A stretch of DNA of 55,579 nt, from positions 1-55,579 of IMG/VR virus record IMGVR_UViG_3300043256_000267, one strand, 5' to 3'. This document shows positions 2,215 through 47,862 of the stretch, in pieces. Every line of letters starts with the position of its first letter. Positions within the stretch are counted from its first letter, which is position 1. The notes beneath the pieces are model-generated. The model made no database searches, was not told the DNA's origin, and was given only the letters and a program-made list of their open reading frames with translations. The translations under genes and the position numbers were made by a program. Source of the stretch: a virus. Taxonomy: Duplodnaviria > Caudoviricetes.

Positions 2215-3150
2215 CTACGCGCCTGGCGTGCTACTCTGTTCCCGCTCCATCAGCGCTTGGTTGTAGCGCATCTTCTCAAGTAGATACTCGTCTTGTTCGT
2301 GCTCAGGCGCAAACCCGGGTACCCGTTCCGGCGCCTTCAACTCGCGGTTCATTTGATGGTCCGTTTGCGATCCCGGTCCCATTCCCGGCCGCGCGGGGCG
2401 CTCAAAAAACGGTGCCAGCCTTGCCTTCTCCGCAGCCACCGCTTGCTTAGCCGCTTGACCCCAGTTGTAGTCAAACCGGTCACCGCGCTCGTCCACAAAC
2501 CGTTGCAGCCGATCCCGAATGATCGACTTCACCGAATCCTGCGCCTTTGGACTCGCCTGCTTCATATTATAGGACAATTCGTCGTCCGAGTCAAGCGCCT
2601 GCCCGATAGCTTGCTCAACCATGTGGCTATGAACAGCCCCGATCGCCTTTTGAGACCCCACATCCAATCGCGCGTACCCTATCGGTTCATCGTCATCAGC
2701 GCGTGCGCCCCGCTTAGGAGACGTAGACGGCTCGTCAAGGTCCACATCGCCGTCATCATCGTCGGTATCTTTCAACTCAGATTCGATTGCAGCGATAAGC
2801 GTATCCAGCTCTCCCGCCGGCAAGTTCTTCACCTGCTCAAACAACACCGACGCATCCACGGTATCTGGAGCCGGTGCCGCGACCGAACGCTCTGGTGGGC
2901 CATTGGTGGGGACCGGTTGCCCGCGATCTTGATCGTCCTGACCTGCCGGCTTGGTCTGCGTGCCGGGTGCAGTCTTGTCAGGCGGCGCAACGGTCCCCGC
3001 GGGAATGTCCACGTCAGCCGCGCGGCCAGTGTTACGCTGAACCGGCGCCGGCGTCAGGTCTGGCGCGCTGCCCTGCGGCTGCGCTGCGGTTTGCGCGTCT
3101 GCGTTCCCCGCGTCGGCTGTTTGCGTTTGTGTGTTGACTTCGGTCGGCAT
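2215..3150 (-). CDS. Probable capsid scaffolding protein
   Basis: Acidic, low-complexity N-terminus and helical C-terminus; directly upstream of the capsid gene. Confidence 0.6.
   Translation of the reverse strand: MPTEVNTQTQTADAGNADAQTAAQPQGSAPDLTPAPVQRNTGRAADVDIPAGTVAPPDKTAPGTQTKPAGQDDQDRGQPVPTNGPPERSVAAPAPDTVDASVLFEQVKNLPAGELDTLIAAIESELKDTDDDDGDVDLDEPSTSPKRGARADDDEPIGYARLDVGSQKAIGAVHSHMVEQAIGQALDSDDELSYNMKQASPKAQDSVKSIIRDRLQRFVDERGDRFDYNWGQAAKQAVAAEKARLAPFFERPARPGMGPGSQTDHQMNRELKAPERVPGFAPEHEQDEYLLEKMRYNQALMEREQSSTPGA
2566..2594 (-). promoter_or_regulatory. Sigma70-type promoter inside the scaffold gene, pointing at the capsid gene
   Basis: TTGACT-17-TATAAT. Confidence 0.7.
2900..2919. 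repeat. 20-bp dispersed motif, copy 1 (CCATTGGTGGGGACCGGTTG on +)
   Basis: Exact; translated as QPVPTNG in the scaffold. Confidence 0.95.
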
Positions 3151-3153
3151 CTG

Positions 3154-3846
3154 CTAATTCCCTCCCTCAATTTTGATCTTTTCCACATTCACAATCGGCT
3201 GGACATTCTGTGACAGCGCAAGAAGCGCTGTGTCCACCGGCACACCCAACTCGCTTGCGGCGAATTTTGCCGCGCTAACTATGCCTGCACATGACGCCTT
3301 CATGGCACATGACATTCGGCTATGCGGGTCCTCGTGTTCAATCCTTTGAAACCTCGCGCAGCGAATGCTCACGCCGCACCCTTCCAAGTCATCCACTACT
3401 GTGTTGCGCAGCTCCTCTTCCATAGTTTGACTTTGTTCAGCGATGGTCTGGAATTCGTTGTCGGATAGTATCCGCCGCACACATGCTTCTACAACTGCTG
3501 CCACATGGACAGCGGGGTCCTCGGATGACGCAAGAAATGTTCCCAAGTCCGCAATATCGTAGATGACAATGGCATCTGCGCTTAACGCTACACCGTCCCA
3601 CGTCAGTCCAGTAACTCGCTCAGTCGATACGACATTCCTGAGTGCATGTTCCTTAACAATCGTTTGGCAAGATGTACAAATTCTCCACCCGATTCCTAAC
3701 CCTGGTCCGGGCTGTCCGAATGTGTACCTGACGGCGACTTCCCCTGGTCTTACGACGGCCCACTTCAACGGGAACAGCCAAACCACTGGGGTGACCAGCG
3801 CGTTCATTACCAATTCTAGACATCGCGCAAGGAACTCAAGCATCAA
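3154..3846 (-). CDS. SPFH/band-7 domain protein
   Basis: N-terminal hydrophobic segment, VVRPGEVAVRYTFG, and the typical D-G-V...Y-I-D...GV-I pattern. Confidence 0.75.
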   Translation of the reverse strand: MMLEFLARCLELVMNALVTPVVWLFPLKWAVVRPGEVAVRYTFGQPGPGLGIGWRICTSCQTIVKEHALRNVVSTERVTGLTWDGVALSADAIVIYDIADLGTFLASSEDPAVHVAAVVEACVRRILSDNEFQTIAEQSQTMEEELRNTVVDDLEGCGVSIRCARFQRIEHEDPHSRMSCAMKASCAGIVSAAKFAASELGVPVDTALLALSQNVQPIVNVEKIKIEGGN

Positions 3847-6019: not shown

Positions 6020-6382
6020 CTACAGATTCTCGTAAGTAGACTCGCCGGGCTCAGTCCAAGCTGTATTCGGCGGCTCTTCCGACGCACGCAACTCCCGCTG
6101 CCGCGCATACGTACCGAATGCCTGAGCCAGATCGGCGTTACCCATTTGAACGAGCAGAAGCTCCTGCATCCGATCGACGATAGGTAGCCAGTCCTGCACG
6201 GCGCTGCCAGCGTGAGGTGGGCCATTGGTGGGGACCGGTTGATTCTTATGCGCTTGCAACTCAGCCACCTCGCGGCGAAGCAATGCAACGTCTTCGCGCA
6301 AGAATGAGATGAACTGCGTCAACCGGTTCACCGCCGAATCCACGTGCTTCTTGTCGTCCCGCTTGCGATTCCAAAATGCCAT
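6020..6382 (-). CDS. Hypothetical protein (coiled coil)
   Basis: GGAGG RBS; abuts the portal start. Confidence 0.7.
   Translation of the reverse strand: MAFWNRKRDDKKHVDSAVNRLTQFISFLREDVALLRREVAELQAHKNQPVPTNGPPHAGSAVQDWLPIVDRMQELLLVQMGNADLAQAFGTYARQRELRASEEPPNTAWTEPGESTYENL
6222..6241. repeat. 20-bp motif, copy 2
   Basis: Exact; identity with copy 1 extends to 26 bp (6216..6241 vs 2894..2919). Confidence 0.95.
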
Positions 6383-6457: not shown

Positions 6458-6939
6458 CCCTCTCGACGGTGTGTCTCATGCGGACACTCTCCCCACCAGG
6501 ATTTAGCGCAATTGCAATTCATACAGAGTACCTGGAATCGGTCCTTGGGGAATCCATTGTCCCGCAACCACCGGTAGAATGCTGGGCCAGATAAAAAACC
6601 GTGTTCCTTGCGCTGTTTGGCACCGTCGTTGTAGACGTGGTCTATAGTTAAGAACTCGAATTTATCTTCTCCGCAACACGCACACCGACCGCCGTAAGAT
6701 TCAATAGTACGCCTACGCAACAGGTTCCGTTGCTTTTTGGAGTTCCGCCTGTTCCGATCGAGGCATTCCTTTGTGTACTCACGCATGTACTCAGTGTGGC
6801 ACACAAGACATCGTCGCTGCCGGCGTTTCAGACTAGACAGCGAAGTATTCTCCACTGTCAACTCGACACCGCAGCATGCGCATGCCTTATTCGAGAGCCG
6901 TCTTAGCTTACGCCGATGTTCAAAGGTACCCAATGACAT
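6430..6939 (-). CDS. HNH endonuclease
   Basis: YGGRCACCGE...FLTIDHV...VLCMNCN; ATG 6939 overlaps the terminase end. Confidence 0.8.
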   Translation of the reverse strand: MSLGTFEHRRKLRRLSNKACACCGVELTVENTSLSSLKRRQRRCLVCHTEYMREYTKECLDRNRRNSKKQRNLLRRRTIESYGGRCACCGEDKFEFLTIDHVYNDGAKQRKEHGFLSGPAFYRWLRDNGFPKDRFQVLCMNCNCAKSWWGECPHETHRREGGLIGGDGL

Positions 6940-8830
6940 CCCAATCCACGACGCCCACGTCGTCGCGCTGGGCCTGCTCTTCCTGCGCGCGGTAGTGGGC
7001 CTCCGCAACCTCGTCCGTCAGGCGCCCGGTTGCGATCGCGTGCTCGAAGTTGTCGAAGCCGAGGTCGTCGTGGAGCTTGCCCTCTTTGAGCTGGGCCACA
7101 GCATCAAGGGGATCGGATGCTACCGAAATCGCGATGGGCGCGGCGCCCTTGGCAATGCCCTGAGACATGGCAAGCGTGTCGAGAATGTCATCGTGCTCCA
7201 GCAGGCCCATATCGCTCGTGAACAACTTGACTTGATCCCAGAGCGCCTTGTACGCAACTTCGTCCATGCGATCCACTGGCAGCTTGACGCGGAACTGCTC
7301 GAAGCGCCACGCGATGCCCTTAATCTTCTCCGCTTTGGAGAATGTAGTGGGAAACTTGATGGGGATAATCGCGGGAACCATTTGAGACTCACCATCGGAC
7401 ACGCGCGCCTGCAACTGCGGGAGGATGTCTTGGTAGAAGCGGTCGTAAGTTTCCATCTGCAACCCGTATGCTTCGATGCCAATGACATGCACGTGCCACT
7501 TGAGAGCCATGTCAATCAGGATTTTGACGAGCGTTGAGCGCTCAACTTTGCCCATCCAAGCATCCAGGGAGAATAGCGTGTTGGGATGCGCTTCGGTGGA
7601 CTCCAAGCCGAGCGCCTGGCACGCGGAAAAGTCAGACATGTCGCTGATAGTGGGCGCGTAATCCGCGAGAAGCATACGGTACATGCCCTGAACTGTGGGT
7701 CCGAAGGGGCGCACGAGCTTGCGGGGAACGGGAACGATGCGCAGTGTTTCTGGGTCGTCCGCGTCCCGCACTTGATCCAAACGCGCAACCTGGTGCGTAA
7801 CCAGCTTGGTGGCGGCGGATTGCAACGGCGAAGTTACGTAGACCTGATCGCGATCCTCCAGGTGGTAGGTCGTGAGTTCTGGGTGAATCTTGAGGAGGGC
7901 TTCCTCGTCTGTGGCCGGCTCGTTGAGACACTGCGCAGAGAATGCGGCCAGGCCAAGCTGCTTCTTTTCGGCCTCGATCCACTCCTCGTTCATAAACACG
8001 TCCGTAGACATATCGTAGACGGTCATCAACGTGCGGTGGAAGAAATCCACGACCTTCGGGTCTTTGGACTTGTACAGGTTGTAAATGTACATCGCGCGCG
8101 AGTAGAGCGTGCCAACGATGCGCATGGGAATGGTCTTGCCCGGCGAACGCGCCATGGGGAGAAGGCCGTTGAAGAAGAAATCGTGGAAGCCCTGGCGCAC
8201 GTCACCCGGATTGAGCACCTGCTCTTTGGACTTCTCTACGTCGTCCACAACGATCAGGCCGGACGGACGCGTGCCTAAGCTGGCACCCATGAAGGGCTTG
8301 GCTTCGATCTTGCAGCGCGACGTGGTTTCGAGGACGGACCCGCGGTTCCAGGTGCCGCTACCGCGCTTGGGTTTTTGTTTACCGAAGTCATCAATGATTC
8401 GCGCGTTGCTTTCCAGTTGTGTAGCGAGACGACCCAAGCGGGATGTGCAGAACTCGCGCGTGGCGTAGAACGCAGTGCATTCCCAAAACCGGCGCGTAAC
8501 GAGGTTCCGTAGAATGTCTTCGAGCAGCTTGGTGGTTTTGCAGCCGCCGCGCGGCGCGATGTGGATCAAGCGCTTGTGCGTGTACCAGTCGCGTACCCAC
8601 TCGGCGTGGGCTGGTGGAGACTCCACAAACGTGTCGGAGTACCAACCAGATTCCCACGGGCGTAAGTACGTGTCGCAGAAGAACCGATCCGCAGCAACTT
8701 CCAGCTCCGGTGGGCCGTTGAGGGACGCGGCGTTGACCCTGGCCAGCCGCTTCCCGTCAAACGTCAAGTCGTCGTAATCAGGAGGAAGCGGCCAGCGGAG
8801 GTTTTCTTCTTTTGGGAAAACAACTGGCAC
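6920..8830 (-). CDS. terL: Terminase large subunit
   Basis: Walker A APRGGCKTT, Walker B LIVVDDVE, C-terminal nuclease HDDILD. Confidence 0.9.
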   Translation of the reverse strand: MPVVFPKEENLRWPLPPDYDDLTFDGKRLARVNAASLNGPPELEVAADRFFCDTYLRPWESGWYSDTFVESPPAHAEWVRDWYTHKRLIHIAPRGGCKTTKLLEDILRNLVTRRFWECTAFYATREFCTSRLGRLATQLESNARIIDDFGKQKPKRGSGTWNRGSVLETTSRCKIEAKPFMGASLGTRPSGLIVVDDVEKSKEQVLNPGDVRQGFHDFFFNGLLPMARSPGKTIPMRIVGTLYSRAMYIYNLYKSKDPKVVDFFHRTLMTVYDMSTDVFMNEEWIEAEKKQLGLAAFSAQCLNEPATDEEALLKIHPELTTYHLEDRDQVYVTSPLQSAATKLVTHQVARLDQVRDADDPETLRIVPVPRKLVRPFGPTVQGMYRMLLADYAPTISDMSDFSACQALGLESTEAHPNTLFSLDAWMGKVERSTLVKILIDMALKWHVHVIGIEAYGLQMETYDRFYQDILPQLQARVSDGESQMVPAIIPIKFPTTFSKAEKIKGIAWRFEQFRVKLPVDRMDEVAYKALWDQVKLFTSDMGLLEHDDILDTLAMSQGIAKGAAPIAISVASDPLDAVAQLKEGKLHDDLGFDNFEHAIATGRLTDEVAEAHYRAQEEQAQRDDVGVVDWDVIGYL

Positions 8831-8831
8831 G

Positions 8832-9839
8832 TTAGCGGCCCGCGGCGGCGAGCTGGTAAACTGTCAAAAATCCAGCAACCATGCCGCAGACGCGTGCAAT
8901 CTGCTCGTTGCCGATGCAGTTGCCACTGCGAGAGCCGCGAAGGAACTTGGACATCTGGTAAACGAATTTGGGGTGCGCGACCATCGAGTTGAACACCTCG
9001 TCGAACGCTTCCCGGCGCTCGAGGGGCCATTCATTGTATTGGGCCGTGCGGCTCAACTGAGCCCAGTATTGGCGGAACAGCTTTTGCGGGGTGCGCTTCA
9101 GGATCATCTGCTGCAACTCTTGCAGGCCCTTGTCCAACTTGGGATTGTCTTCGACTTGTGTAGTCACATGCGGCGGGGGCTCGTCGAAAGATTCTCTCGG
9201 CTCCGGCTCAACATCAAGTTCGTCTAAATCGTCTTGAAGCTCCTCGTCAAGGCGCTGGGCGACGGCTTGATAATCTCCGGGGTCTGACATTGGCGAATGA
9301 GGTTGCTCGTGGCGTTCGTCGCGCTCGGCGAGGGCTCGGACGATCATGTCCACGCCCCGCTCCAAGCGGGACATGCGCTGTTCCAGCATGGCGTCAGTTG
9401 AAATCGGAATCGGGGGAGTCGGGGCCGCAGTCGTCGAGGGAACCGGACAGGGTTGTCCAATCAGCTTCTCCGGCTGGGTGCCGACTGGGTTTGGCTGGCT
9501 TTTTGTGCCCCTTGGACGGTACGGCTTGTTCTTGCGCGGTGGCTTCGGTGTTGGCGCTACAGACGCCTGGTCCGGGCGTGAGACACTTCTCTTTGGGGGC
9601 TCCTGATTCTGATCGGTGCTCGCGTCCGCTTGGGCATCGATCTCCCTCTGGCGCGCCGACCGGGCCTGGAACTCCTCTTTCGACAGTTGGAGGTGTTTGT
9701 TGGTCTGCTGGCCGATCTTGACCTGGATTGGCTGGTCCGAACCTACAGGGGTGGCCAAGGTTTCGGCAGTTCCAGGAAATTGGCCTCCCGGACCCGCCAA
9801 CTGGTTCTCCAAGTCCGGTGGAATCTGTGAGTCTGTCAT
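8832..9839 (-). CDS. Hypothetical protein upstream of terL
   Basis: 335 aa; GGAGG RBS; abuts terL; small-terminase role possible but unsupported. Confidence 0.7.
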   Translation of the reverse strand: MTDSQIPPDLENQLAGPGGQFPGTAETLATPVGSDQPIQVKIGQQTNKHLQLSKEEFQARSARQREIDAQADASTDQNQEPPKRSVSRPDQASVAPTPKPPRKNKPYRPRGTKSQPNPVGTQPEKLIGQPCPVPSTTAAPTPPIPISTDAMLEQRMSRLERGVDMIVRALAERDERHEQPHSPMSDPGDYQAVAQRLDEELQDDLDELDVEPEPRESFDEPPPHVTTQVEDNPKLDKGLQELQQMILKRTPQKLFRQYWAQLSRTAQYNEWPLERREAFDEVFNSMVAHPKFVYQMSKFLRGSRSGNCIGNEQIARVCGMVAGFLTVYQLAAAGR

Positions 9840-9930: not shown

Positions 9931-10533
9931 TTACGGCGTCTTTCCAGGAATCTGTTCGAGTTCCCCGGCGCTCCCGCGAATGCGCTCGGCAAATGCTTTC
10001 AGGGTGCGCAAGCCTCTCAGCAGTTCGCTGGCGGCTTTCCCACGTGGCTTGGGAACCGGGCCGAGCAGCTTGTCTGTGCGCTTGACGACGCGCTGGTACG
10101 CAGCTCGCTCTCGCGGCGTAAGCGATCGAGCTTTGCCGCGGCCGGTTTCCACGCGGTTACGGTCAATCGCGGCCTGTGCAGCTCTGCGCTGGGCTTCGAT
10201 CTTCGTTTGGGTCTCCGCAGTGGATTTATCTTTGGAAGGCATCGGCGTTTTCCTTTCTTGTCCTAGAAACCCGTGTACAGTTGCGCCCCCTGTTTTCGAT
10301 CGTTCATGCGCAAACCTAGTGGCTTCTTCTGGATTATCAAAGTCAGGATAAGTCAACTTCGACTTAACCGCAAAATTGATCGCGTCTCTTTGGTTAAGTT
10401 GCTGTCCTGCAACCAGCGTCGGAATCAAAGTTTCCCGACCTTTGTTCAAAGCAAACGTGCTTACAGATATTGTCCGCTCCGATGAGAACGACCCATCTGG
10501 GTTCCGCACTTTGACTACTTTAGGAACCGGCAT
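9931..10533 (-). CDS. Hypothetical protein
   Basis: Co-oriented ORF in the operon; basic C-terminal half. Confidence 0.6.
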   Translation of the reverse strand: MPVPKVVKVRNPDGSFSSERTISVSTFALNKGRETLIPTLVAGQQLNQRDAINFAVKSKLTYPDFDNPEEATRFAHERSKTGGATVHGFLGQERKTPMPSKDKSTAETQTKIEAQRRAAQAAIDRNRVETGRGKARSLTPRERAAYQRVVKRTDKLLGPVPKPRGKAASELLRGLRTLKAFAERIRGSAGELEQIPGKTP

Positions 10534-10537: not shown

Positions 10538-10789
10538 TCAACTTCCTTCTGGTACGATGCGGTGCCTGAACCTACGCCAGTACGAGTCGGCGTAGTTGCG
10601 GCACTTCGGGCAGTGGTTCTCTTCTAGTTCACCACCCAACAAGTCTGACAATGGAAACATCGCGCTGCACGCTATGCACGCCACTGTACTGCCGTCTGGC
10701 CTGTCCAACTTGAACATCGTTGCGTATGGTAAAAACGGACCGTCTGAATACGTAACCATGTCTACTTCCTTCCCGCGTCTGTGGATCAT
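10538..10789 (-). CDS. Small Zn-ribbon protein
   Basis: CIAC...CPKC; ATGA overlap with the upstream gene. Confidence 0.6.
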   Translation of the reverse strand: MIHRRGKEVDMVTYSDGPFLPYATMFKLDRPDGSTVACIACSAMFPLSDLLGGELEENHCPKCRNYADSYWRRFRHRIVPEGS

Positions 10790-11391
10790 ACAACCTCCGA
10801 CGTTGAATGGCGATAGTCAGGAGAACGGCCGTAGTTGGAACGCATTGGAGGTCGCGCGATGGCGCCGGGGGCTTGTTTTTCGGCACGCGCGGACTCGGCT
10901 GCCGTGCGCTTGCGGTCCCGGTACCGCTGCATGGCCGTGTCGATCTCCATGCCGATACCCAGCCCAGAGAGCAGCCCTTGAAGCGTACCGGACACGCTGG
11001 ACGGCTGAACGAACGCAGCGCCTTTGAGGAGCGCAGAGGAAATGGCCTGTTTGCGCTCGGCTTCGGCGGACGCAGTCGGACTGAGCTTGGTCAAGTCCAC
11101 AGAAACGTCGGGCGGTGTCGGACCGGAAATCTCCTGCCGTGTGCGGACGCGGCCACGGGGGGCTTGGCTGGATGGCCTTCCTGTAATGCCCAACGGCGAG
11201 ACGGTACCCCTCCGCGGCTTCCGCTTGCTGCTAGCTGGTTTTGACTTTGGTTTGCGTGCCCGTGTCAGTTGTGGGTCTAACACCTCGCGCGCTGTTGCTC
11301 TCCGAGACGGTCGCGCGAACTCGAACTCGAACTTCCGGCTGGATTTAGATTCGCGCGCTGGAAACGTCTTGTCTAACGGAATCATCGGCAT
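10786..11391 (-). CDS. Hypothetical basic protein, possibly virion-associated
   Basis: TAATG coupling to the HNH gene; Gly-rich hydrophobic segment. Confidence 0.6.
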   Translation of the reverse strand: MPMIPLDKTFPARESKSSRKFEFEFARPSRRATAREVLDPQLTRARKPKSKPASSKRKPRRGTVSPLGITGRPSSQAPRGRVRTRQEISGPTPPDVSVDLTKLSPTASAEAERKQAISSALLKGAAFVQPSSVSGTLQGLLSGLGIGMEIDTAMQRYRDRKRTAAESARAEKQAPGAIARPPMRSNYGRSPDYRHSTSEVV

Positions 11392-11876
11392 TATAGCTGC
11401 TCACTTTCCAGCAACGCGCCCCAGTTCTTACGGTGTTCACGAGCGTGGCAATTAGCACACAAAACGGTACACTTTTCAAGTTCTTTTTCAACTTCCGGCC
11501 ACGCACGCGAAGTCATAGTCGGCAACTTCGATACCTTGTCCTTTGGATCACGATGGTGAAAGTCTAAAACTAACGTGTCCCTCTCTCCACATGTTACGCA
11601 TCCCGAGTCCTTCTTGATCCCCCAAAGGATCAACTGGCGTTCAACGTGTTTCTTGGCCATTCGCCGAACACGCTTGTCACGCACGCCGGGGCGCTCGATG
11701 TACGCCTTTGCCTTCGCAATGATCTCGTCGCGGTTCTTCAAGTAGTACCTCCGCCGCCGCGCGCGAATCCTACGTTTGTTCTCTGCTTGGTACTTTTTCG
11801 CATACGAAAGCCTCTTGTCCCGGTTTTTGCGGTTGTACTCTCGGTGGTACGCTTTTTGTTCCTCTGTCAACGACAT
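11391..11876 (-). CDS. HNH endonuclease (same family as 103..573)
   Basis: GCVTCGE...LDFHHRDP...EKCTVLCANCH. Confidence 0.85.
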   Translation of the reverse strand: MSLTEEQKAYHREYNRKNRDKRLSYAKKYQAENKRRIRARRRRYYLKNRDEIIAKAKAYIERPGVRDKRVRRMAKKHVERQLILWGIKKDSGCVTCGERDTLVLDFHHRDPKDKVSKLPTMTSRAWPEVEKELEKCTVLCANCHAREHRKNWGALLESEQL

Positions 11877-12371: not shown

Positions 12372-13283
12372 CTAAGACCCCCACACAGCGGCCAAGTGGT
12401 CCAGGCGGTCTTCGGGGGTGCCCTCATAGCAGGCGCGTTCGAGATCGGTCATGGGACGGGACTCGGCCTCTGCCTGCGCAGCCCGCAAGTTCTCACCGGT
12501 CGGATCGGGCTCGTGGGGCGCCGCGGGAGCGTCTGGCTTTGGAGCACTAACAGACCGTTTACGGCGGCGCTTGGACGTGCGGGACCGGTGAGTCCCGGGT
12601 GGCTCGGTGTCCCAACCAGCCTCCCGTTGGCCGGCAGCGTGACGTTCGGCTTTTTCATCGTGCGACCAGGTGCGGCGCTTGGACTTCTTGTGGGAACGGG
12701 CCTCCTCCATGCGAGCGAGAGCCTGCTCACGGAGAACATCGTCGGCCCGCGCGACCGCTTCGTGGGACGGGATACCCTGCGCGAGCAGCTTGTCGTATTC
12801 GCGGACGTGGGCTGGGCCGCGGGTGGGGATACCGGCGCCCACACGACGAAACTTTACTCGGCACCGCCTATGCCACAGATAGTGCCCACTCAGCCCCTCA
12901 CCGTACTCCTCCAGGATTTCGGCTGGGGAACGAGGTACCGCGTCAAATTCGTCGGTGGCCCCGTTGAGGACCAGCTCACGGCCCAGCGCCCATTTGGCGA
13001 GCCCTGTACCGTCCAGCCACTTGGCAGCTATCCAAACAGCGTATTTGGGGTCCATAGGCTCGTTGCACACCCCGCATTGGCCCTCCTGCTGCTTCCACTG
13101 AGCGTACTTGCACTGGTAGAGGGCCATGCGCACGTCGGCAGCGGTGAACCCAACGCGATCGCACTTACGGACTGACCCCACACCCGGTTTCCAAAGCCTC
13201 TCCGGGGGCTTCCGTTTTCGGGTTTTCTGTCCGCACGTGGGACACACTCCAGATGGCGTTCGATTCTGACCCGCGTTTTCCAT
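12372..13283 (-). CDS. Hypothetical Zn-binding protein
   Basis: CPTC, QEGQCGVC and HRRC; may be a degenerate endonuclease-VII/HNH-like fold. Confidence 0.6.
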   Translation of the reverse strand: MENAGQNRTPSGVCPTCGQKTRKRKPPERLWKPGVGSVRKCDRVGFTAADVRMALYQCKYAQWKQQEGQCGVCNEPMDPKYAVWIAAKWLDGTGLAKWALGRELVLNGATDEFDAVPRSPAEILEEYGEGLSGHYLWHRRCRVKFRRVGAGIPTRGPAHVREYDKLLAQGIPSHEAVARADDVLREQALARMEEARSHKKSKRRTWSHDEKAERHAAGQREAGWDTEPPGTHRSRTSKRRRKRSVSAPKPDAPAAPHEPDPTGENLRAAQAEAESRPMTDLERACYEGTPEDRLDHLAAVWGS

Positions 13284-13669: not shown

Positions 13670-14455
13670 TCACACGAGGCCCGGTGGGTCAGCCAGCGCA
13701 CCACAAAGGTACTCGCCTGGCTCGATTCCGTACAGGCGGTCCTCGGCGCCAGCTACGTACTTCTCGGACAGCTCGATGCCCAAATAGCGGCGGCGAAGCT
13801 TCTTGGCAACGGCTAGAGTGGTACCGCTGCCGACGAAGGGGTCGAGTACCAGGTCGCCTTCGTTGGAACAGGCCCGGATGATGCGGCCGAGGACCTGTTC
13901 GGGCATCTGGCAACCGTGAAAGCCAGCGCGTTCCTTGAAGGTGCCGCAGACCCGCGGGAACTGCCACGTATCATCAGGGATGCGGCCCTTGGGATTGGCC
14001 CGTTTGTCGTTGTACTTGAGCTGGCGGGCAGACGGCACGCGGATCGCATCAGCGTTGAACGTGAAGTTCTTGGGGTCCTTGACGAAGTAGAGCAAGTGCG
14101 TGTGGCTGCGCGTAAACTTGCGCTTGCAATTGACGCCGAACGTGTAATGCCAAATGACCCAGTTCCGACACGTAAGGCCTAACTTTTGGATCATCACTTT
14201 TAGCTCAGCCGCGTAGTCATCTCCGATGGCAACCCAAAGTGTACCATTTGGCTTAAGTGCATCAACGGCTCCGATGATCCACTCGCGCGACCAAGCAAGG
14301 TAGCTCTGGGGGGATCGCGCGTCATTGCATTCGTCGTACTCGTAGCCGATGTTGAATGGCGGGTCGGCAAAGACGAGGTCGACTGAGCCCGCGTTGAGCT
14401 TGGCGAGTTCTTGAATGCAATCGCCGTGGATGATCCGATCAAGATCGTCTGTCAT
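13670..14455 (-). CDS. Orphan DNA methyltransferase (N6A/N4C, beta class)
   Basis: DPPF catalytic motif precedes the [14 protein letters not shown]-binding motif; GAGGAGG RBS. Confidence 0.92.
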
Positions 14456-14456
14456 G

Positions 14457-14633
14457 TTAGTCCTCCTCTGGCTCGCTGCACCCCCAGCAGAGGGTGTTTC
14501 TTCCCGGCACGCAACAGTCAAAGCCCTGCGCGCCACATTTAGGGCACTCGTACACGCGCGCGTCGTTCAGGGGCCGCTCGTTGCCGCAGTGCGGGCATGT
14601 TTCCTTCTTGGGCTTGGCTTTCTTTTTGGTCAT
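14457..14633 (-). CDS. 58-aa Zn-finger protein (not in the ORF track)
   Basis: [17 protein letters not shown]...CPKCG...CC...CWGC; ends 1 bp before the MTase start; TTAACT-17-TATAGT promoter at 14646..14674. Confidence 0.65.
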
Positions 14634-15496: not shown

Positions 15497-15557
15497 TTGA
15501 CATTCCACGCTGGGCATCATACACTTACATCGACTCGCCGAACTGAAAGGGTGCGCA
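15497..15557 (+). promoter_or_regulatory. Early promoter-leader unit 1
   Basis: TTGACA-17-TACACT...GACTCGCCGAA...AAAGG-ATG. Confidence 0.8.
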
Positions 15558-18597: not shown

Positions 18598-18630
18598 TCT
18601 TGCCTTGCGCAAGAGAAAGGACCAACGACC

Positions 18631-19055: not shown

Positions 19056-19240
19056 AACTGCAATCTACCATTGGTGGGGACCGGTTGCAGGACCCGCGGT
19101 TATGCGTAAACTGCGGTAGCTTTAGGCGCCTGCCCAGCTACCGGTACTGCCACCGTTGCCTAGAGTACCTCAAACCGATTGTTCGCGCGTGGGCACGCAG
19201 GCAGAATCCCGTACCCGGAGAGGACATACCAGAATGTTAA
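19052..19240 (+). CDS. Small Zn-binding protein
   Basis: CVNC...CHRC; ATGA overlap. Confidence 0.6.
   Translation: MKLQSTIGGDRLQDPRLCVNCGSFRRLPSYRYCHRCLEYLKPIVRAWARRQNPVPGEDIPEC
19068..19087. repeat. 20-bp motif, copy 3
   Basis: Exact; translated on the other strand as TIGGDRL. Confidence 0.95.
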
Positions 19241-21180: not shown

Positions 21181-21238
21181 TCTCGCTCCAGCCTGTGTGT
21201 CAAAAGTGGGCAGGGGCTCCAAGATCGCGTGCTGCACT

Positions 21239-21258
21239 CAACCGGTCCCCACCAATGG
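21239..21258. repeat. 20-bp motif, copy 4 (inverted)
   Basis: CAACCGGTCCCCACCAATGG on +; lies between a promoter and its gene. Confidence 0.95.
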
Positions 21259-21295: not shown

Positions 21296-21358
21296 ATTAT
21301 AGGCCGTGATTTTGTCCAGGTCAAGCCCCTTGACACAGCCCGCCGGGGGTGCTATCGT
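21296..21358. promoter_or_regulatory. Back-to-back divergent promoters
   Basis: Minus: TTGACC-17-TATAAT (21296..21324). Plus: TTGACA-17-TATCGT (21330..21358). Confidence 0.75.
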
Positions 21359-25194: not shown

Positions 25195-25348
25195 GCCACG
25201 TAACGACAGCGTTGTTGATAGCAGCTTACGTCTTACTGGCGGGTACCTGCGCGTTTGAAAAGCGGTGGCCCGTGTGCCTATACTGGGTTGGGGCCGTAAT
25301 CGTGACGGGCGGCGTGTTGTGGATGAGCGCACGTATGGAGATTCCAAA

Positions 25349-26584
25349 GTGAGTGAGAAATCAATCGAAGATCGCGTTGTGGACTGGATTAGCCGCCACG
25401 GCAACAAGGGAACCACGTCCCGCGACTTGGTAGCCTCCCGCATTGTGCCTAATGCCGAGGCCGCGCGTAAGGTTTTGAGGCGGCTGTTCAATGCAGTAGG
25501 TGGGACGTGGAAGCACAACAAGTTCTATCTGCTCAGTTCACAGATACGCGCTGGAACCGACTTGGACACCCACGATCCTCGGTTTCGCTCAGACTTGCTG
25601 CGGCTTCTGCGCAAGCCTACTACGATAAAGCAATTAGGTTCCAAGCTGCGCATTCATGCTACCGATGTGGAACAGGCTTTAACTGATTTGGAGGGGTCAG
25701 GTTACATCGTCGAGCGCGTTGGCCAGCGCGTTACGTTGGGAGTCGCGGTGCCTGAGAGCGCTCGCCGCATTGTGCGCGCCAACCATTTCATCGACAAGCC
25801 AGTTCTATTTGGCATCGTGGCAGATATGCACATGTGCTCTAAGTCGGAGCGCCTGGATGTTGTCAATGCCGCTTACGATGAGTTTGCTGCGCAAGGCATT
25901 GATACGGTACTGTGTCCGGGTAACTACGTCGACGGCGAAGCGCGGTTCAACCGCTATGAATTGTACGCTCACGGAATCGCAGACCAGTGCCAGTATTGCA
26001 TTGACCATTGGCCGCAGCGCAAGGGCATCAAGACGTTCTACATTGACGGCGACTGCCACGAAGGTTGGTACCTCACGCGGGAGGGAATCGAATTCGGCCG
26101 GTACCTCATGTTGGAAGCACAGCGGCAAGGTCGCGAAGACCTTGTGTACCTCGGGTCGATGGAAGCGGACATCGAACTGAAAGCGCCGAAAGGCTCTGCG
26201 GTCATCAAGATCATGCACCCTGGTGGTGGTACAGCTTACGCTATTTCATACGCAGTCCAAAAGCTTGCTGAGAGCTACCAGGGAGGAGAGAAACCCGCAG
26301 TCGCAATCGTAGGCCACTACCACAAATTTGAGTATTCGTTTCCGCGTTCGATTCACATGCTGCAACCGGGTTGCTGTCAAGACCAGACGCGATTCATGCG
26401 TAAGCTCAAGCTCGCAGCGCACGTTGGCTTTAGTACCATCGAGTTGCAACAAGACGTGGGCGGTTCCATTACGCGCTTTACCCCAACCTTCTTTCCGTTT
26501 TGGGACCGCGGCTACTACTTATCCCGTGACGGGCAAGCTGCCGCAACGCGGCTCCAACGCAAAACTAAGGCGCGTAGCAAGTGA
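25349..26584 (+). CDS. Calcineurin-like metallophosphoesterase with N-terminal winged-helix-like domains
   Basis: ADMH, GNYVDG, GDCHE, MHPGGG, GHYH. Confidence 0.85.
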   Translation: MSEKSIEDRVVDWISRHGNKGTTSRDLVASRIVPNAEAARKVLRRLFNAVGGTWKHNKFYLLSSQIRAGTDLDTHDPRFRSDLLRLLRKPTTIKQLGSKLRIHATDVEQALTDLEGSGYIVERVGQRVTLGVAVPESARRIVRANHFIDKPVLFGIVADMHMCSKSERLDVVNAAYDEFAAQGIDTVLCPGNYVDGEARFNRYELYAHGIADQCQYCIDHWPQRKGIKTFYIDGDCHEGWYLTREGIEFGRYLMLEAQRQGREDLVYLGSMEADIELKAPKGSAVIKIMHPGGGTAYAISYAVQKLAESYQGGEKPAVAIVGHYHKFEYSFPRSIHMLQPGCCQDQTRFMRKLKLAAHVGFSTIELQQDVGGSITRFTPTFFPFWDRGYYLSRDGQAAATRLQRKTKARSK

Positions 26585-32642: not shown

Positions 32643-32662
32643 CCATTGGTGGGGACCGGTTG
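32643..32662. repeat. 20-bp motif, copy 5
   Basis: Exact; intergenic. Confidence 0.95.
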
Positions 32663-32739
32663 GGGTCATGCGTTCCAGTCGTCCAAAGTGGCGTGACTGC
32701 TGGAGAGACAGCGATTTTCTAACCAAAAAGGAACTACCC

Positions 32740-33186: not shown

Positions 33187-33206
33187 CAACCGGTCCCCAC
33201 CAATGG
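33187..33206. repeat. 20-bp motif, copy 6 (inverted)
   Basis: Exact; intergenic. Confidence 0.95.
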
Positions 33207-43333: not shown

Positions 43334-44806
43334 TTACTCTAGCTCTCCCCCAAGAAACATAGTGGCAAAACCTAGTACGGCACCCGCGGGGCCGGGAATC
43401 ATGTCCATGAACAACTGAGACATCGTAGCCGTCTTTGCCCACTCCTCTCCCGCAGCGAGTGCTTCCAGCATGTTGTTGTAGCCCCCTGCCTGGAGCTTTG
43501 TTGCAAAGTCAGTCCCGAGGATATCCCGTCCGATTGCGTAGTGGTTCAACGCAAAATCATACGGCAACTGGCTCACGTAGTTCTCCGCGTCCAGCAACGC
43601 CAGAGTCGTCCCATCCTTAGCATCACGGTAATTCGCCGTCAGGTTGTCATAGTTAAACCGAATCGAATCCGCATTGTTCCGCGCATTGATCCGCAGCTCG
43701 TCGAATCCGGCAGAAATCTTAGCCGCAGTGTCATACGCACTCGCAACCGCCTGCATTTCAGCACCACCCAATGCCGCAAGCGACTGGTTTCGCGCAGTCG
43801 ATGCGGCAGCAACGGACTGCATCGTACTTACCATCGCACCCGTTTGTAACGCTGTAAAGTCTTTGATGTTCGCGCCAATGGTTGTCGCAATTTGCATAGA
43901 TCCATTCACACGCAATTGTGCAAGCAACGCTGACTTACGGCCCGCCGGGATATTCGGGTCCGCGTTGATTCTTGCCTCTGCGTCGCGCATGGCTTGCTGC
44001 TGCGCGCTCACGGCCGCTTGGGCAGCCGCGTTCTTCCCCTCCATCGCCATGCCGACCGCCTCGCGCCCGAGTCCCTCGATGCGGTCGATGTCAATGTCGG
44101 TTGTTTCTTTGTACTTGTCCGCAATCCCTTGCAGCGCATCTTGCACCTGCCCCGGCAACTGGGACGCATCCTGCTTGGCCAGCTTCGCGATGTCGTCCGC
44201 CGCTTGCACCGTCGTATCCAGCCGATCCCGCCCCTCAGCCAGTTGCGTCTCTGTGTCAGTTTCACGCCCGGCAATGTCGGTCTCGGCTTCCTGAAGCGAC
44301 TCCCCAGCCGCCCCCATTTCAGCCGTGCTCAAATCCTCAAGTTTCTCCAGAGATTGCTCACCGAACTCCCCGATCTCCGGCGCGACTGCCTCTCCGGTTT
44401 CCGGGTCCACCTCACCAGTGAACTCGCCCACCTCCGGCGCTTCAGCCGCCGTTGGCCCAGCATACGGACGTAGGTTTCCCTGCTCATCACGGTATACCGT
44501 GCGCCCTGACTCGCTGCGGTACACTTGCAGCCCTTCCGGCGTAGTCCCCGCTGCGCGGAACGGGTCTGCTGTCTGTGGTCCTGCGCCAGGCTTTCCCGGC
44601 CCAGCATCCGGCCCAGTAGCCCCCTGTTTCAGCTTCGCCCCAGCGCTACCTTTGCCATTGGTGGGGACCGGTTGTGGCCCCGCGGGTGCCTGCTCGCCAA
44701 TTCGGGCCTTGCGCCGCTTGGCGGTCCTGCTCACAGCGCTTCCGAGGCGCTTCAAAGACGAGGTCCGCGTTCGAGTCTCGTTTGGTGATGTAGGTGCCGT
44801 TGCCAT
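43334..44806 (-). CDS. Probable DNA-ejection/pilot protein
   Basis: Ala-rich coiled coil; C-terminal GPAGAVLG hydrophobic segment. Confidence 0.6.
   Translation of the reverse strand: MATAPTSPNETRTRTSSLKRLGSAVSRTAKRRKARIGEQAPAGPQPVPTNGKGSAGAKLKQGATGPDAGPGKPGAGPQTADPFRAAGTTPEGLQVYRSESGRTVYRDEQGNLRPYAGPTAAEAPEVGEFTGEVDPETGEAVAPEIGEFGEQSLEKLEDLSTAEMGAAGESLQEAETDIAGRETDTETQLAEGRDRLDTTVQAADDIAKLAKQDASQLPGQVQDALQGIADKYKETTDIDIDRIEGLGREAVGMAMEGKNAAAQAAVSAQQQAMRDAEARINADPNIPAGRKSALLAQLRVNGSMQIATTIGANIKDFTALQTGAMVSTMQSVAAASTARNQSLAALGGAEMQAVASAYDTAAKISAGFDELRINARNNADSIRFNYDNLTANYRDAKDGTTLALLDAENYVSQLPYDFALNHYAIGRDILGTDFATKLQAGGYNNMLEALAAGEEWAKTATMSQLFMDMIPGPAGAVLGFATMFLGGELE
44655..44674. repeat. 20-bp motif, copy 7
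   Basis: Exact; translated as QPVPTNG. Confidence 0.95.
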
Positions 44807-44823
44807 ACTACTTTGTCCCACTG

Positions 44824-44854: not shown

Positions 44855-47380
44855 CTACCCGGGCCGCGTGGATGCCTCGGATGCGGACAAGTGGCCCCGC
44901 ACCAACAGCGCGTCAATCTCGTAGTCCATGTTAGCCCCATATGACTCCAGAAACGGGTACATCTTGGTACCTCCGCGGTTCGCACGCACGTTTACTTGGT
45001 CTGGCACGCTGTTCACCCGCACCGCATTGGTCGTGAGCACAGTGTCCTGCGTTCGTAATCCCATGTCAATAAACGCGTTTGGATCGGACTCGCCGGTCTC
45101 GCCACCCAGCGCCTCTACACTCGCGCTCATGGTGTGGCCGACTTTCCGCGGGAACGGATCGTCGGACCCCATTCCAGACAATCGGGCAAACCGCGCATGG
45201 ACCACCACAGGCGCAACCGAGTAGCGATCGTCCACAGACAGTGCGCCCGGCAGTCCGCTTACGGTCAGCTCGATATCAGACACGCGGGCCGTGATTTCCA
45301 CCTTTGAGCCCTCATGGTCCCCGGACAGAATGTACGCGCTGTGGCCCACAACGGTCTGCGGAAATGTAGCGCCGCTGTCAATGATCGCGGTAGCCGAGGC
45401 GGACGTGACTTGCCCGTTTACAGTGTCGAACGCGCCCGCACCAACCATAGTGACCTTGCCAGACTCGCGGAATGCGTCAATTACGCTGACAACGCCGTCA
45501 GATGTGACCAGGTAGCTACGCTGCCCCACGCCATCGGACAGAACGTCTTGGCCATCGGTCACAAATGTCCACGGGCAGTTTATCACGCGCGTGACTGCTC
45601 CAGTGGCCTCCCATAAGATGACCATTTCCTTCTTGTTTGTATTCAGCAAGATGAGCGCACCGGCGAACGAATCGTATCCGACCTTCACGTCAGCAAGCGT
45701 CTTGCCCCACTGGCGGTCGTCGATGATGAGCCGGTTGACGAGTTTGACGTTACGCACCTCGTTGGTCAAGCCGTCAATTTCCTTCATGCCGGTTGCCGTC
45801 AACACGTAGAGCGTATCGCCTGCCGCGACCGCGCCGTTCGCACTCATGGCAGAGATACTGTTAACGATGCGGGTTACCGTAACACCAGTACCCGCGCGCG
45901 CTATCCGGTATACGGACTTGTTCGTGAGCGCGAAGGCAATTGACGATCCCGGATACAAATTTAGCACGCGCTCGGATGGGTCATTCAACGGCTCATAGTT
46001 GAGCACGGGGAAATTCTCAGGCTCGTCCAAGTGGATCGCGCTCCAGACGATGCTTTCCGGCACGCGATCTTGTTTGGTCCAAGATTCATCCAAACCAACG
46101 TCGTCCGGCGACGCTTGGTCAGTTACCCCAATGAGCATGTTGTCAAAACCCAACAAGCGCTTCATGCGCGGCGCGGGTCCAAAATCGTGATGCTCCGCGC
46201 TGTATTCGTCGCTGGTAAACAGCCCCTCATCAGCGATGTGTTCAATTTCGCGCGTGTAACTAGTAATTATCGCGTCTTCGTCTTGAATCTTGAATCGCCA
46301 GGTGGCAATTCCAGCCCCACTCGGCTGATCGAGCAACGGTTCATACGGACGGTATTCGTACAAACGTTGGACGGGCCGGTACTTGCCGGCGGTTATGCCG
46401 GTATCGTTCTGTGGAGTGCGCCATAACCGGAACCCGTCTACGTGTCCAACCCCCCAGTGAAGAGGCGCTGTTTGACTGTTGCTCACTTGTCGGAGCAACT
46501 GGTGGTAGCCCGGTGACGGGTTGTCCTCCGGCAGCCACAGGTTGTTCATCACATAGCGAATACTAAAAAGTGTACTCGGTATGGTAAATGTTCTAAACCG
46601 CAGGAAAGAGCGCAAGTTGTGCTTTTGTGATACTAGCTCGGCTCCAAACGTATATTGACCCGGTGGCAATGGTTTATCGTCACCGGTAAGTTCCATGTCG
46701 AAAACATCAGTAGGAACACCGAGCCGGTCTGTGTTTACGGATGTAATCAAGCAGCGCTCTGGCAGCAAACCCATGAGCCGACCTTGCCACCCCCCAGTAT
46801 AGCGGTCCCAATCATTGATCTTGAAGTCCCAGAAGTACGCCTTGTTGTACGGCGGCGCGGTCACGTTCACAATGTGTACCGTGCTCTCGGACGCGCCCGC
46901 GTTGACGAAATAGATGTACCGCCCCAAGCAGCTAATGTCGTATTGATCGAACGTCGTGGGCTTAAAGTCAGTCCACAACGCGAAATCCTCAAGCTGTACA
47001 ACGTCGGTGCTGCCGTCTTCTGAGTCGCGGTACGCAAAGTATAGCGCCTTCCCGGTCGCAGTTTGGTTGTCAGCTAGGATGACCAGACCGGCAAGCGTGT
47101 CCGGGGATACGCCCTTACGGACACTGGCGTACTTGACCAACTGGATGTTGTTGATTTGCTCAATCGTGGTTACGCCGACCTCGGGAGCGGGAATGCCGTG
47201 GATGGACGCGCCGCCGAATCCAGGGAACACGCGCAGACCGCCCTCGTTGCGCCCATCAACACCGGTCGCTTCAACCAACATGCGAGGGTCGATGGCGCCC
47301 GGAGACATGCGCAGGTCCATACCGGGGAATACAGGCCGGTAGAACCACTTGGCATGATCGTCGTGTTGCCGCTCTGGCAT
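44855..47380 (-). CDS. Tail nozzle/stabilisation protein (P22 gp10 / T7 gp12-like)
   Basis: 841 aa, beta-rich; IVWS...PENF motif; gene position. Confidence 0.65.
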   Translation of the reverse strand: MPERQHDDHAKWFYRPVFPGMDLRMSPGAIDPRMLVEATGVDGRNEGGLRVFPGFGGASIHGIPAPEVGVTTIEQINNIQLVKYASVRKGVSPDTLAGLVILADNQTATGKALYFAYRDSEDGSTDVVQLEDFALWTDFKPTTFDQYDISCLGRYIYFVNAGASESTVHIVNVTAPPYNKAYFWDFKINDWDRYTGGWQGRLMGLLPERCLITSVNTDRLGVPTDVFDMELTGDDKPLPPGQYTFGAELVSQKHNLRSFLRFRTFTIPSTLFSIRYVMNNLWLPEDNPSPGYHQLLRQVSNSQTAPLHWGVGHVDGFRLWRTPQNDTGITAGKYRPVQRLYEYRPYEPLLDQPSGAGIATWRFKIQDEDAIITSYTREIEHIADEGLFTSDEYSAEHHDFGPAPRMKRLLGFDNMLIGVTDQASPDDVGLDESWTKQDRVPESIVWSAIHLDEPENFPVLNYEPLNDPSERVLNLYPGSSIAFALTNKSVYRIARAGTGVTVTRIVNSISAMSANGAVAAGDTLYVLTATGMKEIDGLTNEVRNVKLVNRLIIDDRQWGKTLADVKVGYDSFAGALILLNTNKKEMVILWEATGAVTRVINCPWTFVTDGQDVLSDGVGQRSYLVTSDGVVSVIDAFRESGKVTMVGAGAFDTVNGQVTSASATAIIDSGATFPQTVVGHSAYILSGDHEGSKVEITARVSDIELTVSGLPGALSVDDRYSVAPVVVHARFARLSGMGSDDPFPRKVGHTMSASVEALGGETGESDPNAFIDMGLRTQDTVLTTNAVRVNSVPDQVNVRANRGGTKMYPFLESYGANMDYEIDALLVRGHLSASEASTRPG

Positions 47381-47838
47381 TACTTCCTCACCACTACAAA
47401 CTCACGCGACATGTCCCCCAGCAGCGCATTGAGCACCTGTGCTAAGTTCGCCGTCGTGGGACTAGATACATCCAGCTCCCTGGATACGGTATCGTCATCA
47501 GACGTATATACTCGACGTATGGGAGCCGGCCCCTTAGCCACATACTCGTCGCGCCCGCCGGGCCTCCGATCTTGCGCCAGCTCGTTTACCGGTAGCACAT
47601 CCGGCATTTGGATAGCGGACTTATCTTGCTCCCACTCTGACTGTACAGATTCGTGCTGGAACGTTTCCTCGCCAACGATCAATGTAGGAGCCACTGCGCG
47701 GCGCATGTCCGGTTCAAATGGCGCGGCTAACTCGCTTGGGCTGAACAACCGAACGCGCGTTTCCCGCCCGATAGCCGACGTGCGCAGGTTTCCACGGCCC
47801 TTTCTCACCGACAGCGGTTCAATGTTGCGGTATCGCAT
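47380..47838 (-). CDS. Hypothetical virion protein
   Basis: TAATG coupling. Confidence 0.6.
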   Translation of the reverse strand: MRYRNIEPLSVRKGRGNLRTSAIGRETRVRLFSPSELAAPFEPDMRRAVAPTLIVGEETFQHESVQSEWEQDKSAIQMPDVLPVNELAQDRRPGGRDEYVAKGPAPIRRVYTSDDDTVSRELDVSSPTTANLAQVLNALLGDMSREFVVVRK

Positions 47839-47842
47839 GGAT

Positions 47843-47862
47843 TAACCGGTCCCCACTAATGG
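47843..47862. repeat. 20-bp motif, copy 8 (inverted, 2 mismatches)
   Basis: TAACCGGTCCCCACTAATGG in a 31-bp intergenic gap. Confidence 0.85.

Follow-up and report, generated by a model that had tools for sequence, protein, structure and literature searches.

The window analysed here, labelled G000, is a whole IMG/VR virus record (IMGVR_UViG_3300043256_000267, 55,579 bases), and scattered through it at eight positions is a 20-base word, CAACCGGTCCCCACCAATGG. We conclude that this 20-mer is a site acting in cis, at the level of the DNA, for a phage-specific factor, and we put the probability of this at about 0.8. By analogy with the nick sites of other phages, we tentatively favour nicking, or tight binding by an enzyme of the nuclease type, a first choice that we hold with clearly less than an even chance of being right. 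The original prediction, made from the sequence of the window, was of a high-specificity protein-binding or nicking site, and this is retained as the best reading.

Seven of the eight copies are exact, starting at 2900, 6222, 19068, 32643 and 44655 on the - strand and at 21239 and 33187 on the + strand; the eighth has two mismatches (TAACCGGTCCCCACTAATGG at 47843, + strand). The search thus recovered the same eight copies, at the same coordinates, that had been claimed beforehand, and none of 100 dinucleotide-preserving shuffles of the window gave a match at three mismatches or fewer. Loosening the search to six mismatches added just five hits, every one of them at exactly six, with no tail of weaker copies. 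The two sub-palindromes that had been noted within the word, ACCGGT and CCA-A-TGG, are both present, and the 20-mer as a whole is asymmetric, not palindromic. A second element, CGCRKG, lies 0-7 nt upstream of six of the eight copies (the background rate is 4.2% for 0-16 nt) and is extended to (G)ATCGCG in many of them.

In IMG/VR the exact 20-mer was found in one other contig only, G001 (53,649 bases), which is collinear with the window (70-95% identity per aligned segment; 15.9% mismatch over 41,975 aligned bases). G001 has eight unique copies (five exact and three with one mismatch), all at orthologous positions and with five on the - and three on the + strand. A scan of a metagenome collection placed the word in seven stretches; L034-L039 are fragments of relatives (three samples, 66-92% identity) and carry it at the sites that we call, in map order, A, B, C, D, E, F and H. 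The hits in metagenome-assembled genomes (L013-L015) and the single hits L033 and L040 show no homology to the window and were taken as chance. Across the phages, 20 of 25 copies are exact, there are six substitutions in 500 copy-positions, and positions 2-12 are invariant. Pairwise divergence of the word is 12/560 (2.1%) versus 1070/3141 (34%) for the 60-nt flanks.

Three copies (A, B and G) are coding and five (C, D, E, F and H) are non-coding. All three coding copies lie in the sense orientation and read QPVPTNG. Site A (2900..2919, - strand) is in gene 2215-3150(-), abuts its CGCGGG (2920..2925, - strand, gap 0), and is exact in L034 and one mismatch away in G001; site B (6222..6241, - strand) is in gene 6020-6382(-) and is exact in G001 and L037; site G (44655..44674, - strand), in gene 43334-44821(-), has its CGCGGG at 44679..44684 (- strand, gap 4) and one mismatch in G001 that changes N to I. 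A fourth coding copy had been claimed for site C, reading TIGGDRL on the opposite strand; here the claim for A, B and G stood, with the peptide occurring in three unrelated proteins without synonymous change as described, and that for C did not. The ORF (open reading frame) in question, 18995-19240(+), has 20/18/23 mismatches to G001 at codon positions 1/2/3 and is probably non-coding, because it has no codon-position signature in that comparison.

Within the coding copies, none of the 18 third-codon positions differs between the window and G001, against 26-31% genewide (P about 0.003), and both changes seen in coding copies are non-synonymous. The free synonymous variation that would be expected of a conserved peptide is not seen. 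The three coding copies are in variable protein linkers, and at A and G the orthologues in the nearest outgroup, G005, lack the linker stretch that holds QPVPTNG (gaps in the alignment), which answers the question, posed with the original prediction, of whether the peptide is an insertion relative to orthologues. The comparison indicates that purifying selection acts on the DNA word itself and that the proteins accommodate it, because no synonymous change and only protein-altering changes are seen, and because the word is used on both strands and in both senses relative to genes. The earlier suggestion that the DNA and not the peptide or an RNA is selected is thus borne out by the codon data and by the mixed orientation.

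Site C (19068..19087, - strand; CGCGGG at 19093..19098, - strand, gap 5) is exact in L036 and has one mismatch in G001; it comes 13 nt after ORF 18417-19055, with which the rightward early block ends, and precedes gene 19362-19772(+). Site D (21239..21258, + strand; CGCGTG at 21226..21231, + strand, gap 7) is exact in G001, L036 and L038 and is located between divergent genes, in the leader of a small membrane-protein gene with a conserved ATG near 21180. Site E (32643..32662, - strand; CGCATG at 32667..32672, - strand, gap 4) is conserved non-coding sequence, exact in G001 and L039 and with one mismatch in L035, and is flanked by the inverted repeat ACGCATG/CATGCGT. Site F (33187..33206, + strand), exact in G001 and L035, is 5 nt past the stop of ORF 32955-33182 and 28 nt ahead of an ATG at 33235. 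Site H (47843..47862, + strand), the copy with two mismatches, is exact in G001 and L034. It lies antisense to genes 47870-51547(-) and 47380-47838(-), in the 31 nt that separate the stop of the first from the ATG (47838) of the second, and its CGCATG (47834..47839, + strand, gap 3) overlaps the latter's start codon.

Five copies are on the - strand and three on the +; relative to transcription five are sense and three antisense on our own gene map, which was built from codon-position mismatches against G001, ORF tiling and sigma-70-like promoters. The orientation of the 20-mer tracks neither strand nor transcription. On the map the sites are grouped into four close pairs, spaced about a quarter of a genome apart (gaps of 3.3, 12.8, 2.2, 11.4, 0.5, 11.5, 3.2 and 10.6 kb), and the same paired spacing is found in G001. 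Pairs C/D, E/F and G/H are inverted, with their CGCRKG sides facing inward, and A and B are direct repeats.

Several simpler explanations were rejected. An adapter, primer or assembly artefact, which would have undone the prediction, is excluded by the presence of the word at orthologous places, between diverged flanks, in the assemblies of at least four other samples; indeed all the refutation tests suggested with the original prediction favour a real feature. The proposed search of relatives and candidate host genomes found the word in close relatives and gave no host-genome repeat (uptake sequence, Chi-like or repetitive extragenic palindromic): 596 Gb of species-representative genomes hold three single matches (about one is expected by chance, and the host is perhaps unrepresented), in contexts without homology to the window. 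A hairpin or structured RNA is likewise out. The fold z-scores of the sites run from -1.8 to +1.0, seven of the eight fold no better than shuffles (only E is near -1.8), there is no shared fold, and Rfam and ARAGORN gave no family and no tRNA. A translation-start signal was considered, since at D, E and H of the window the reverse complement directly adjoins a start codon, and was rejected as the relatives keep this only at H. A sigma-54 promoter fails on the GG/GC spacing, which by eye does not fit in either orientation. Beside site E, at 32569-32590(+), is a hairpin resembling the T-arm and acceptor 3' strand of a tRNA (GCAGG TTCGAGT CCTGC CCGCC), with compensating changes in its stem in G001 and L039. 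A reading of this hairpin as a tRNA or attP is unsupported; ARAGORN finds no tRNA and there is no integrase.

The wider family adds a second line of evidence. From roughly 80 TerL homologues we arrived at 27 IMG/VR loci, from which six near-complete genomes were fetched (TerL identity 39-62%). The 20-mer is present in none of nine more distant relatives at three mismatches or fewer. These phages have dispersed words of their own, counted here with up to one mismatch: AACCGGGAGAGT in G008 (35 copies), AAGCCGGGAGAG in G010 (33 copies), ATCGGGAGAGAG in G009 (19 copies), ACGGGAACGAGT in G007 (20 copies) and a 17-mer in G006 (5 copies, mostly intergenic). The four 12-mers of G007-G010 (loci L074-L085) have unconserved flanks, are split about 1:1 between the strands and lie mostly inside genes, in all frames and both senses; by rough gene calls the sense/antisense genic copies number 10/19, 12/16, 8/7 and 7/11 in the four phages (sum 37/53). 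The words of G008 and G010 differ as AACCGGGAGAG versus AGCCGGGAGAG, and G010 keeps the word with the same A-to-G change at 17 of 23 alignable G008 sites (12 of 35 were unalignable). The change between the two phages is concerted across many sites. The dispersed words of the more distant relatives also occupy, in part, the positions that the 20-mer has here.

G005 falls in between: GCGCGGAGGA-GGTCCCCACCAAT-CC is confined to its B and E orthologues, with just GGTCCCCACCAAT kept at B and ATTGGTGGGGACC at E; a different 25-mer is found at the H orthologue and at one other place; and its sole CCGGGAGAG is the G008-type TACCGGGAGAGT, exactly at the F orthologue. A search of G005 for a genome-wide word of its own gave low-copy words only. 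To us the 20-mer looks like one state of a family-wide site system in which specificity drifts and the sites follow in concert, which would imply that the reader is encoded by the phage.

We therefore suggest the following model. The 20-mer, usually with CGCRKG 0-7 nt upstream, would be a cis-acting recognition site held at eight fixed positions. Its reader would be a sequence-specific factor of the phage lineage, presumably a protein and presumably phage-encoded, that nicks or tightly binds the phage's own DNA on both strands. Such nicks could prime strand-displacement replication, serve recombination or relieve strain during packaging. In favour of nicking, the evolutionary pattern is like that of the nick sites of phage tf, where positions are kept and the consensus shifts; here too, positions are conserved among relatives while the word shifts between lineages. 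A broader proposal, which we regard as speculative and rather unlikely as it stands, is that a family of lytic-looking, uncultured sediment phages marks its own DNA with lineage-specific asymmetric words that are read by a co-evolving phage enzyme. The words might then act as nick sites on both strands that prime strand-displacement replication, considered because no primase or replicative helicase was recognised in the window, or as self-marks that spare phage DNA from a phage nuclease.

Two proteins are candidates for the reader. The first, a 303-residue protein encoded by 12372..13283 (- strand), has an N-terminal CxxC, a weak HNH/endonuclease VII-like core and a long basic helical tail; it is found only in this clade and G005 and has a conserved CxxC..H..HxxC pattern. 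In the predicted model (mean predicted local distance difference test score, pLDDT, of 62), the core, residues about 46-154, matches T4 endonuclease VII with a Z of 4.5 and a root-mean-square deviation of 2.2 over 55 residues, and also the HNH domains of Cap5 and Cas9. Foldseek E values are at least 0.34, with T5 SciA (9qgx) listed at E 3.1; by its title, this PDB entry is the T5 SciA endonuclease bound to GCGC DNA, and a literature search found no paper describing SciA. The ESM look-alikes are clusters carrying HNH or Endonuclease_7 (0.88-0.90). Taken together, the conserved pattern, the fold matches and the look-alike clusters agree with one another and weakly suggest an HNH/His-Me nuclease fold. 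The second candidate, 439 residues (25265..26584, + strand; mean pLDDT 78), has two N-terminal winged-helix domains and an Mre11/PolD-DP1-like phosphoesterase domain (Foldseek 8ppt_A, E 2.3e-9); G001 and G005 both encode it, and none was detected in G006-G010. Its family is widespread, with varied helix-turn-helix types and sometimes with inteins. Several homologues (P0146-P0179) are 625-750 residues long, one with a Hint (intein) domain and another named 'Hint domain-containing', and because of the Hint/intein domains among its homologues, this family is marked as an important replication protein of many uncultured phages.

As partners of the site, the original prediction had offered 12372-13283 and 8832-9839. 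Only the first acquired any support, the weak nuclease-like signal described above; 8832-9839 has no detectable family and, from its position only, would take the place of the small terminase subunit. Nothing usable was obtained from PHROGs, Pfam, NCBIfam or PDB sequences for 8832-9839, 9931-10533, 10786-11391, 28075-28689, 34113-35303 and others. The mobile-looking HNH endonuclease 11391-11876 (- strand; phrog_2255, E 3e-24) was rejected as the reader, being missing from G001, which keeps all the sites. The absence is precise, with the flanks joined directly, and gives this gene the look of a homing-type mobile insertion. G001 has a different small HNH-like ORF (G001 8551-8604) between the capsid gene and the next gene.

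Several observations weigh against nicking. The known nick sites of T5-type phages are on one strand, and the sites here are on both (five - and three +; about 1:1 in the relatives). Known nick consensuses span 7-19 bp and tolerate variation, and it is unusual for a protein-read site to be fixed at all of 20 positions. Five of the eight copies are at gene junctions, one in a promoter-proximal leader, and two come 150-190 nt after strong promoter-like sequences. In L034, a contig that was expected to reach site G, this site was not found. As for the 12372-13283 protein, its HNH signal is below the reliable level (Z <8, Foldseek E >0.3, ESM about 0.9), family and sequence searches gave it no sequence-level match, and a packaging HNH of the ordinary kind, or a resolvase, would be just as well placed near the terminase. 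Finally, the orientation tallies of the relatives rest on heuristic gene calls.

The main rival, second after nicking and in our judgement unlikely yet deserving serious consideration, is that a global phage regulator of transcription uses the sites as operators or roadblocks, a single protein that binds asymmetric sites to repress, block or activate several units. In its favour, five of the eight copies are intergenic, and three copies lie behind promoters. The latter had been predicted for promoters at 6429, 21296 and 44824 and was confirmed, with distances of 188, 38 and 150 nt for B, D and G. The sigma-70-like promoter near B (6457 to 6429, - strand) and that near G (44852 to 44824, - strand) score 10-11 of 12; PL (21324 to 21296, - strand; TTGACC-17-TATAAT), which places site D at about +31 to +50, is back-to-back (21296..21358) with PR (21330 to 21358, + strand; TTGACA-17-TATCGT), and the hexamers of both are conserved in an alignment of four phages. 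A conserved TA-rich hexamer (GTATTT, TACATT or TGTATT), which may serve as a -10 element, comes 7 nt after each of sites E and F. The two winged-helix domains of the 25265-26584 protein also count in favour. Dispersed asymmetric operators are of a known kind (described in the accessible text of PMC8546580 and PMC6550527), and stoperator motifs are likewise reported there to co-vary with the repressor between lineages (PMC6550527).

However, the orientation of the sites is not tied to transcription (5 sense/3 antisense here; 37/53 in the relatives), and stoperators, in the same accessible text, are predominantly in one orientation. Three copies, and most of those in the relatives, are deep inside genes and far from promoters. 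The sites of a single regulator usually vary, and here 20 of 25 are identical over 20 positions. No repressor-like helix-turn-helix protein or repressor family was recognised in the proteins scanned (small ORFs were partly scanned), and with no integrase, resolvase or ParB, a lysogenic repressor system is not indicated. The stoperator-like role that had been proposed was therefore not upheld, given the free orientation, the presence of only eight copies, the lack of an integrase or ParB here and the lack of an integrase in five relatives.

It is less probable still that the sites serve replication, packaging or the folding of the genome, as polar fork barriers, loading sites, centromere-like sites, or marks of self against host DNA. 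The four close pairs about a quarter of a genome apart, seen also in G001, would suit such a role, as would the equal use of both strands, the absence of the word from host-type genomes, and the density of the relatives' words (about 0.6 per kb, in all frames), which is like that of a genome-wide mark. In six of eight genomes examined, a copy of the motif lies beside a GC-rich hairpin 0.5-1 kb downstream of sak4. Set against these points, no ParB was found, the site is non-palindromic, unlike those of parS or KorB, and the regular spacing may merely follow module boundaries. The parS-like site proposed earlier is not supported, for the first two reasons. We know of no such system that uses 20-bp asymmetric sites in a phage.

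The inverted arrangement of C/D, E/F and G/H, with CGCRKG inward, raises the possibility, a slim one in our estimate, that the words are cassette boundaries, that is, conserved words or recombinase sites where related phages swap or invert segments. Both the E-F interval (544, 961 and 1179 bp in three phages) and the C-D interval (2171, 2269 and 1474 bp) are hypervariable, and the E and F orthologues of G005 are only about 29 nt apart. The 1179-bp E-F interval of L035 (2098-3277) holds a stretch 71% identical to the window's methyltransferase gene (13927-14167), and the cargo of the interval therefore differs between phages. Sites C, D, E and G are within 44-108 nt of a break in the alignment of the window to G001, a closeness that is only mildly unusual, as we estimate that about 1 in 5 aligned bases is that close. 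The phage does encode a Sak4-type annealing protein and an exonuclease, but searches found neither a tyrosine nor a serine recombinase. Conserved structural genes occupy the G-H interval, and A and B are direct repeats around a 724-residue structural protein (by position, likely the portal), such that their recombination would be lethal. A single 36-kb Logan contig over 18500-33700 shows no joints or alternative arrangement; it is possibly from the source sample and not independent. With no joints in the one available run, the recombination site that had been suggested was not sustained either, and a benefit in evolvability alone would hardly fix 20 of 20 bases.

Promoters of the T7 class look much like the 20-mer, with near-identity over about 20 bp and about eight copies, and the word could in principle be a promoter or other signal of a phage-specific transcription machinery. 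Read forwards, it points with the genes at A, B, D, F and G, and as most of the large proteins are familyless, a novel polymerase is possible. We nevertheless consider this very unlikely: the word runs opposite to the local genes at C, E and H, most of the relatives' 12-mers are antisense and lie within genes, and anything from 28 nt to more than 1 kb separates the word from the following start codon. PHROGs and Pfam revealed no RNA polymerase among the large proteins of the window (most of which have no family at all), and the conserved sigma-70-like promoters suggest that the host polymerase is used. Least probable of all is a phage nucleic acid (RNA guide or antisense RNA), encoded at copy E, that recognises the word by base pairing, for although constraint at all 20 positions (6 substitutions/500) suits pairing better than protein contacts, and E is flanked by a stem conserved in relatives with a conserved hairpin adjoining, Rfam gave no family, nothing like TnpB, IscB, Cas or Argonaute was recognised among the proteins, the upstream element is at a variable distance, unlike a protospacer-adjacent or target-adjacent motif (PAM or TAM), the relatives' words are only 12 nt with unconserved flanks, and copies in both senses fit no single set of RNA targets.

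The genome that carries these sites has a CheckV completeness of 100%, gave no match to GenBank phages (20-kb megablast), and was found in a single sequencing run, a marine-sediment metagenome; no RNA run is listed as carrying it. The ends of the contig repeat imperfectly (1-354 versus 54876-55229, 78% identity; 618-774 versus 55423-55579, 97.5%), and because of these repeats the contig is probably a circular or permuted assembly closed over strain variation, with a genome of about 54.8 kb. A rightward arm (about 15.3 to 36.1 kb) holds early and replication genes, and a leftward arm, which starts near 14.5 kb and descends across the contig ends to 36.1 kb, holds packaging and structural genes. 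Recognisable families are scarce in PHROGs and Pfam scans. Family matches identify the large terminase (6920-8830, - strand), a DNA methyltransferase (13670-14536, - strand), a family A DNA polymerase (21629-24355, + strand), a DHH phosphoesterase (24295-25194, + strand) and a deoxynucleoside monophosphate (dNMP) phosphatase (35293-35880, + strand), and 29179-29670 (+ strand) encodes a MazZ-like dATP/dGTP diphosphohydrolase N-terminal domain (PF18909, E 2.3e-21). The set of MazZ-like domain, dNMP phosphatase and DHH phosphoesterase hints at manipulation of the nucleotide pool or a modified base; a PurZ-like protein was not recognised among the proteins of the window. Six-frame searches with PF00589, PF00239 and PF02195 found no integrase, resolvase or ParB in the window (PF02195 none at E <=0.1), nor was an integrase (PF00589) found in five near-complete relatives. 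The family appears lytic, as are the phages with localized nick sites, because of this lack of an integrase in the window and the five relatives.

Four promoter-like sites on the + strand (15497-15525, 15764-15792, 16066-16094 and 18417-18445) share the hexamers TTGAC[A/T]-17-TACACT. They fall in small rightward ORFs at 15.1-18.4 kb that have no nucleotide similarity to G001, and this block is probably a hypervariable early region with a repeated early promoter. An SPFH/Band 7 protein (3154-3846, - strand; PF01145, E 4e-13) lies among the head genes; it is 91% identical in G001 and there is none in the six more distant relatives. The tail-region protein 53195-54067(-) has low-density-lipoprotein-receptor class B/beta-propeller repeats, is shared with G008 alone (56% identity), and may be a receptor-binding module open to exchange.

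Only a few temperate phages are known to have dispersed operators, and the present sites offer a clean comparative series, with the same eight positions in five phages and a divergence of 34% in the flanks versus 2% in the word. The shifted words of the relatives make the pairing of site and reader testable, and the dispersed 12-mers of G007-G010 are notable in their own right. QPVPTNG is present in three unrelated structural proteins only because the DNA word is needed there, which illustrates how a DNA signal can shape the linkers of proteins. A protein able to read 20 asymmetric bp with such fidelity, a nickase above all, would be a useful reagent. If self-marking or nicking of both strands is true, it would constitute a genome-wide cis/trans system of a kind undescribed for phages.

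Among the known systems, parS and KorB sites are palindromic and 13-16 bp long, unlike the asymmetric 20-mer, and the ParB family (PF02195) was not found. T7-type promoters point towards the genes they serve, unlike the word at C, E and H and most of the relatives' words, which are antisense. In Cluster A phages the stoperators are, in the accessible text of PMC6550527, asymmetric and found both within and outside coding DNA; their motif varies from lineage to lineage along with the protein that binds it. They are 13-14 bp long, number 20-30 copies, are oriented with transcription and belong to temperate phages with an integrase or parABS, whereas the site in the window is 20 bp, has eight copies in free orientation and is accompanied by no lysogeny genes; the relatives' 12-mers do reach 19-35 copies. 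The C1 repressor of P1 has 22 dispersed operators with an asymmetric 17-bp consensus (accessible text of PMC8546580). Like these, the 20-mer is a long, asymmetric, high-specificity site scattered over a genome of a similar order of size. P1, however, is temperate and plasmid-borne with a known repressor, whereas neither lysogeny genes nor a repressor were found here, several of our copies are far from a promoter, and the copies are far more uniform.

HNH enzymes encoded near phage terminases are described as site- and strand-specific nickases, often with zinc ribbons, and fusion of an HNH nickase to a DNA-binding module lengthened its site to 12-13 bp (accessible text of PMC3592412). The site of one such nickase, N.phiGamma, is YCG/GT = AC/CGR (PMC4027164) and is included in the ACCGGT of the 20-mer; the natural sites of this type are 3-7 bp and, in the accessible text of these papers, are not reported as conserved dispersed words. 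The closest parallel is with the localized nick sites of lytic phages, which number from a handful to 14 copies of an asymmetric word found genome-wide, including inside genes, and whose function in T5-type phages was stated as unknown in 2012 (accessible text of PMC3517423). In T5, phiKMV-like and tf phages all nick sites described there are on one strand; the phiKMV consensus, CGACN5CCTA/CTCCGG, is bipartite; and among tf-related phages, tf included, putative nickase sites have similar positions and differing consensuses, which the authors read as co-evolution of nickase and site (PMC3517423). The sites of the window differ in their use of both strands and in their 20 fixed bp as against 7-19 variable ones, and no homologue of a known nickase was detected by sequence. 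They resemble the localized nick sites in being an asymmetric dispersed word, in keeping their positions while the word shifts, and, as with the phiKMV consensus, in having two parts, the 20-mer and CGCRKG.

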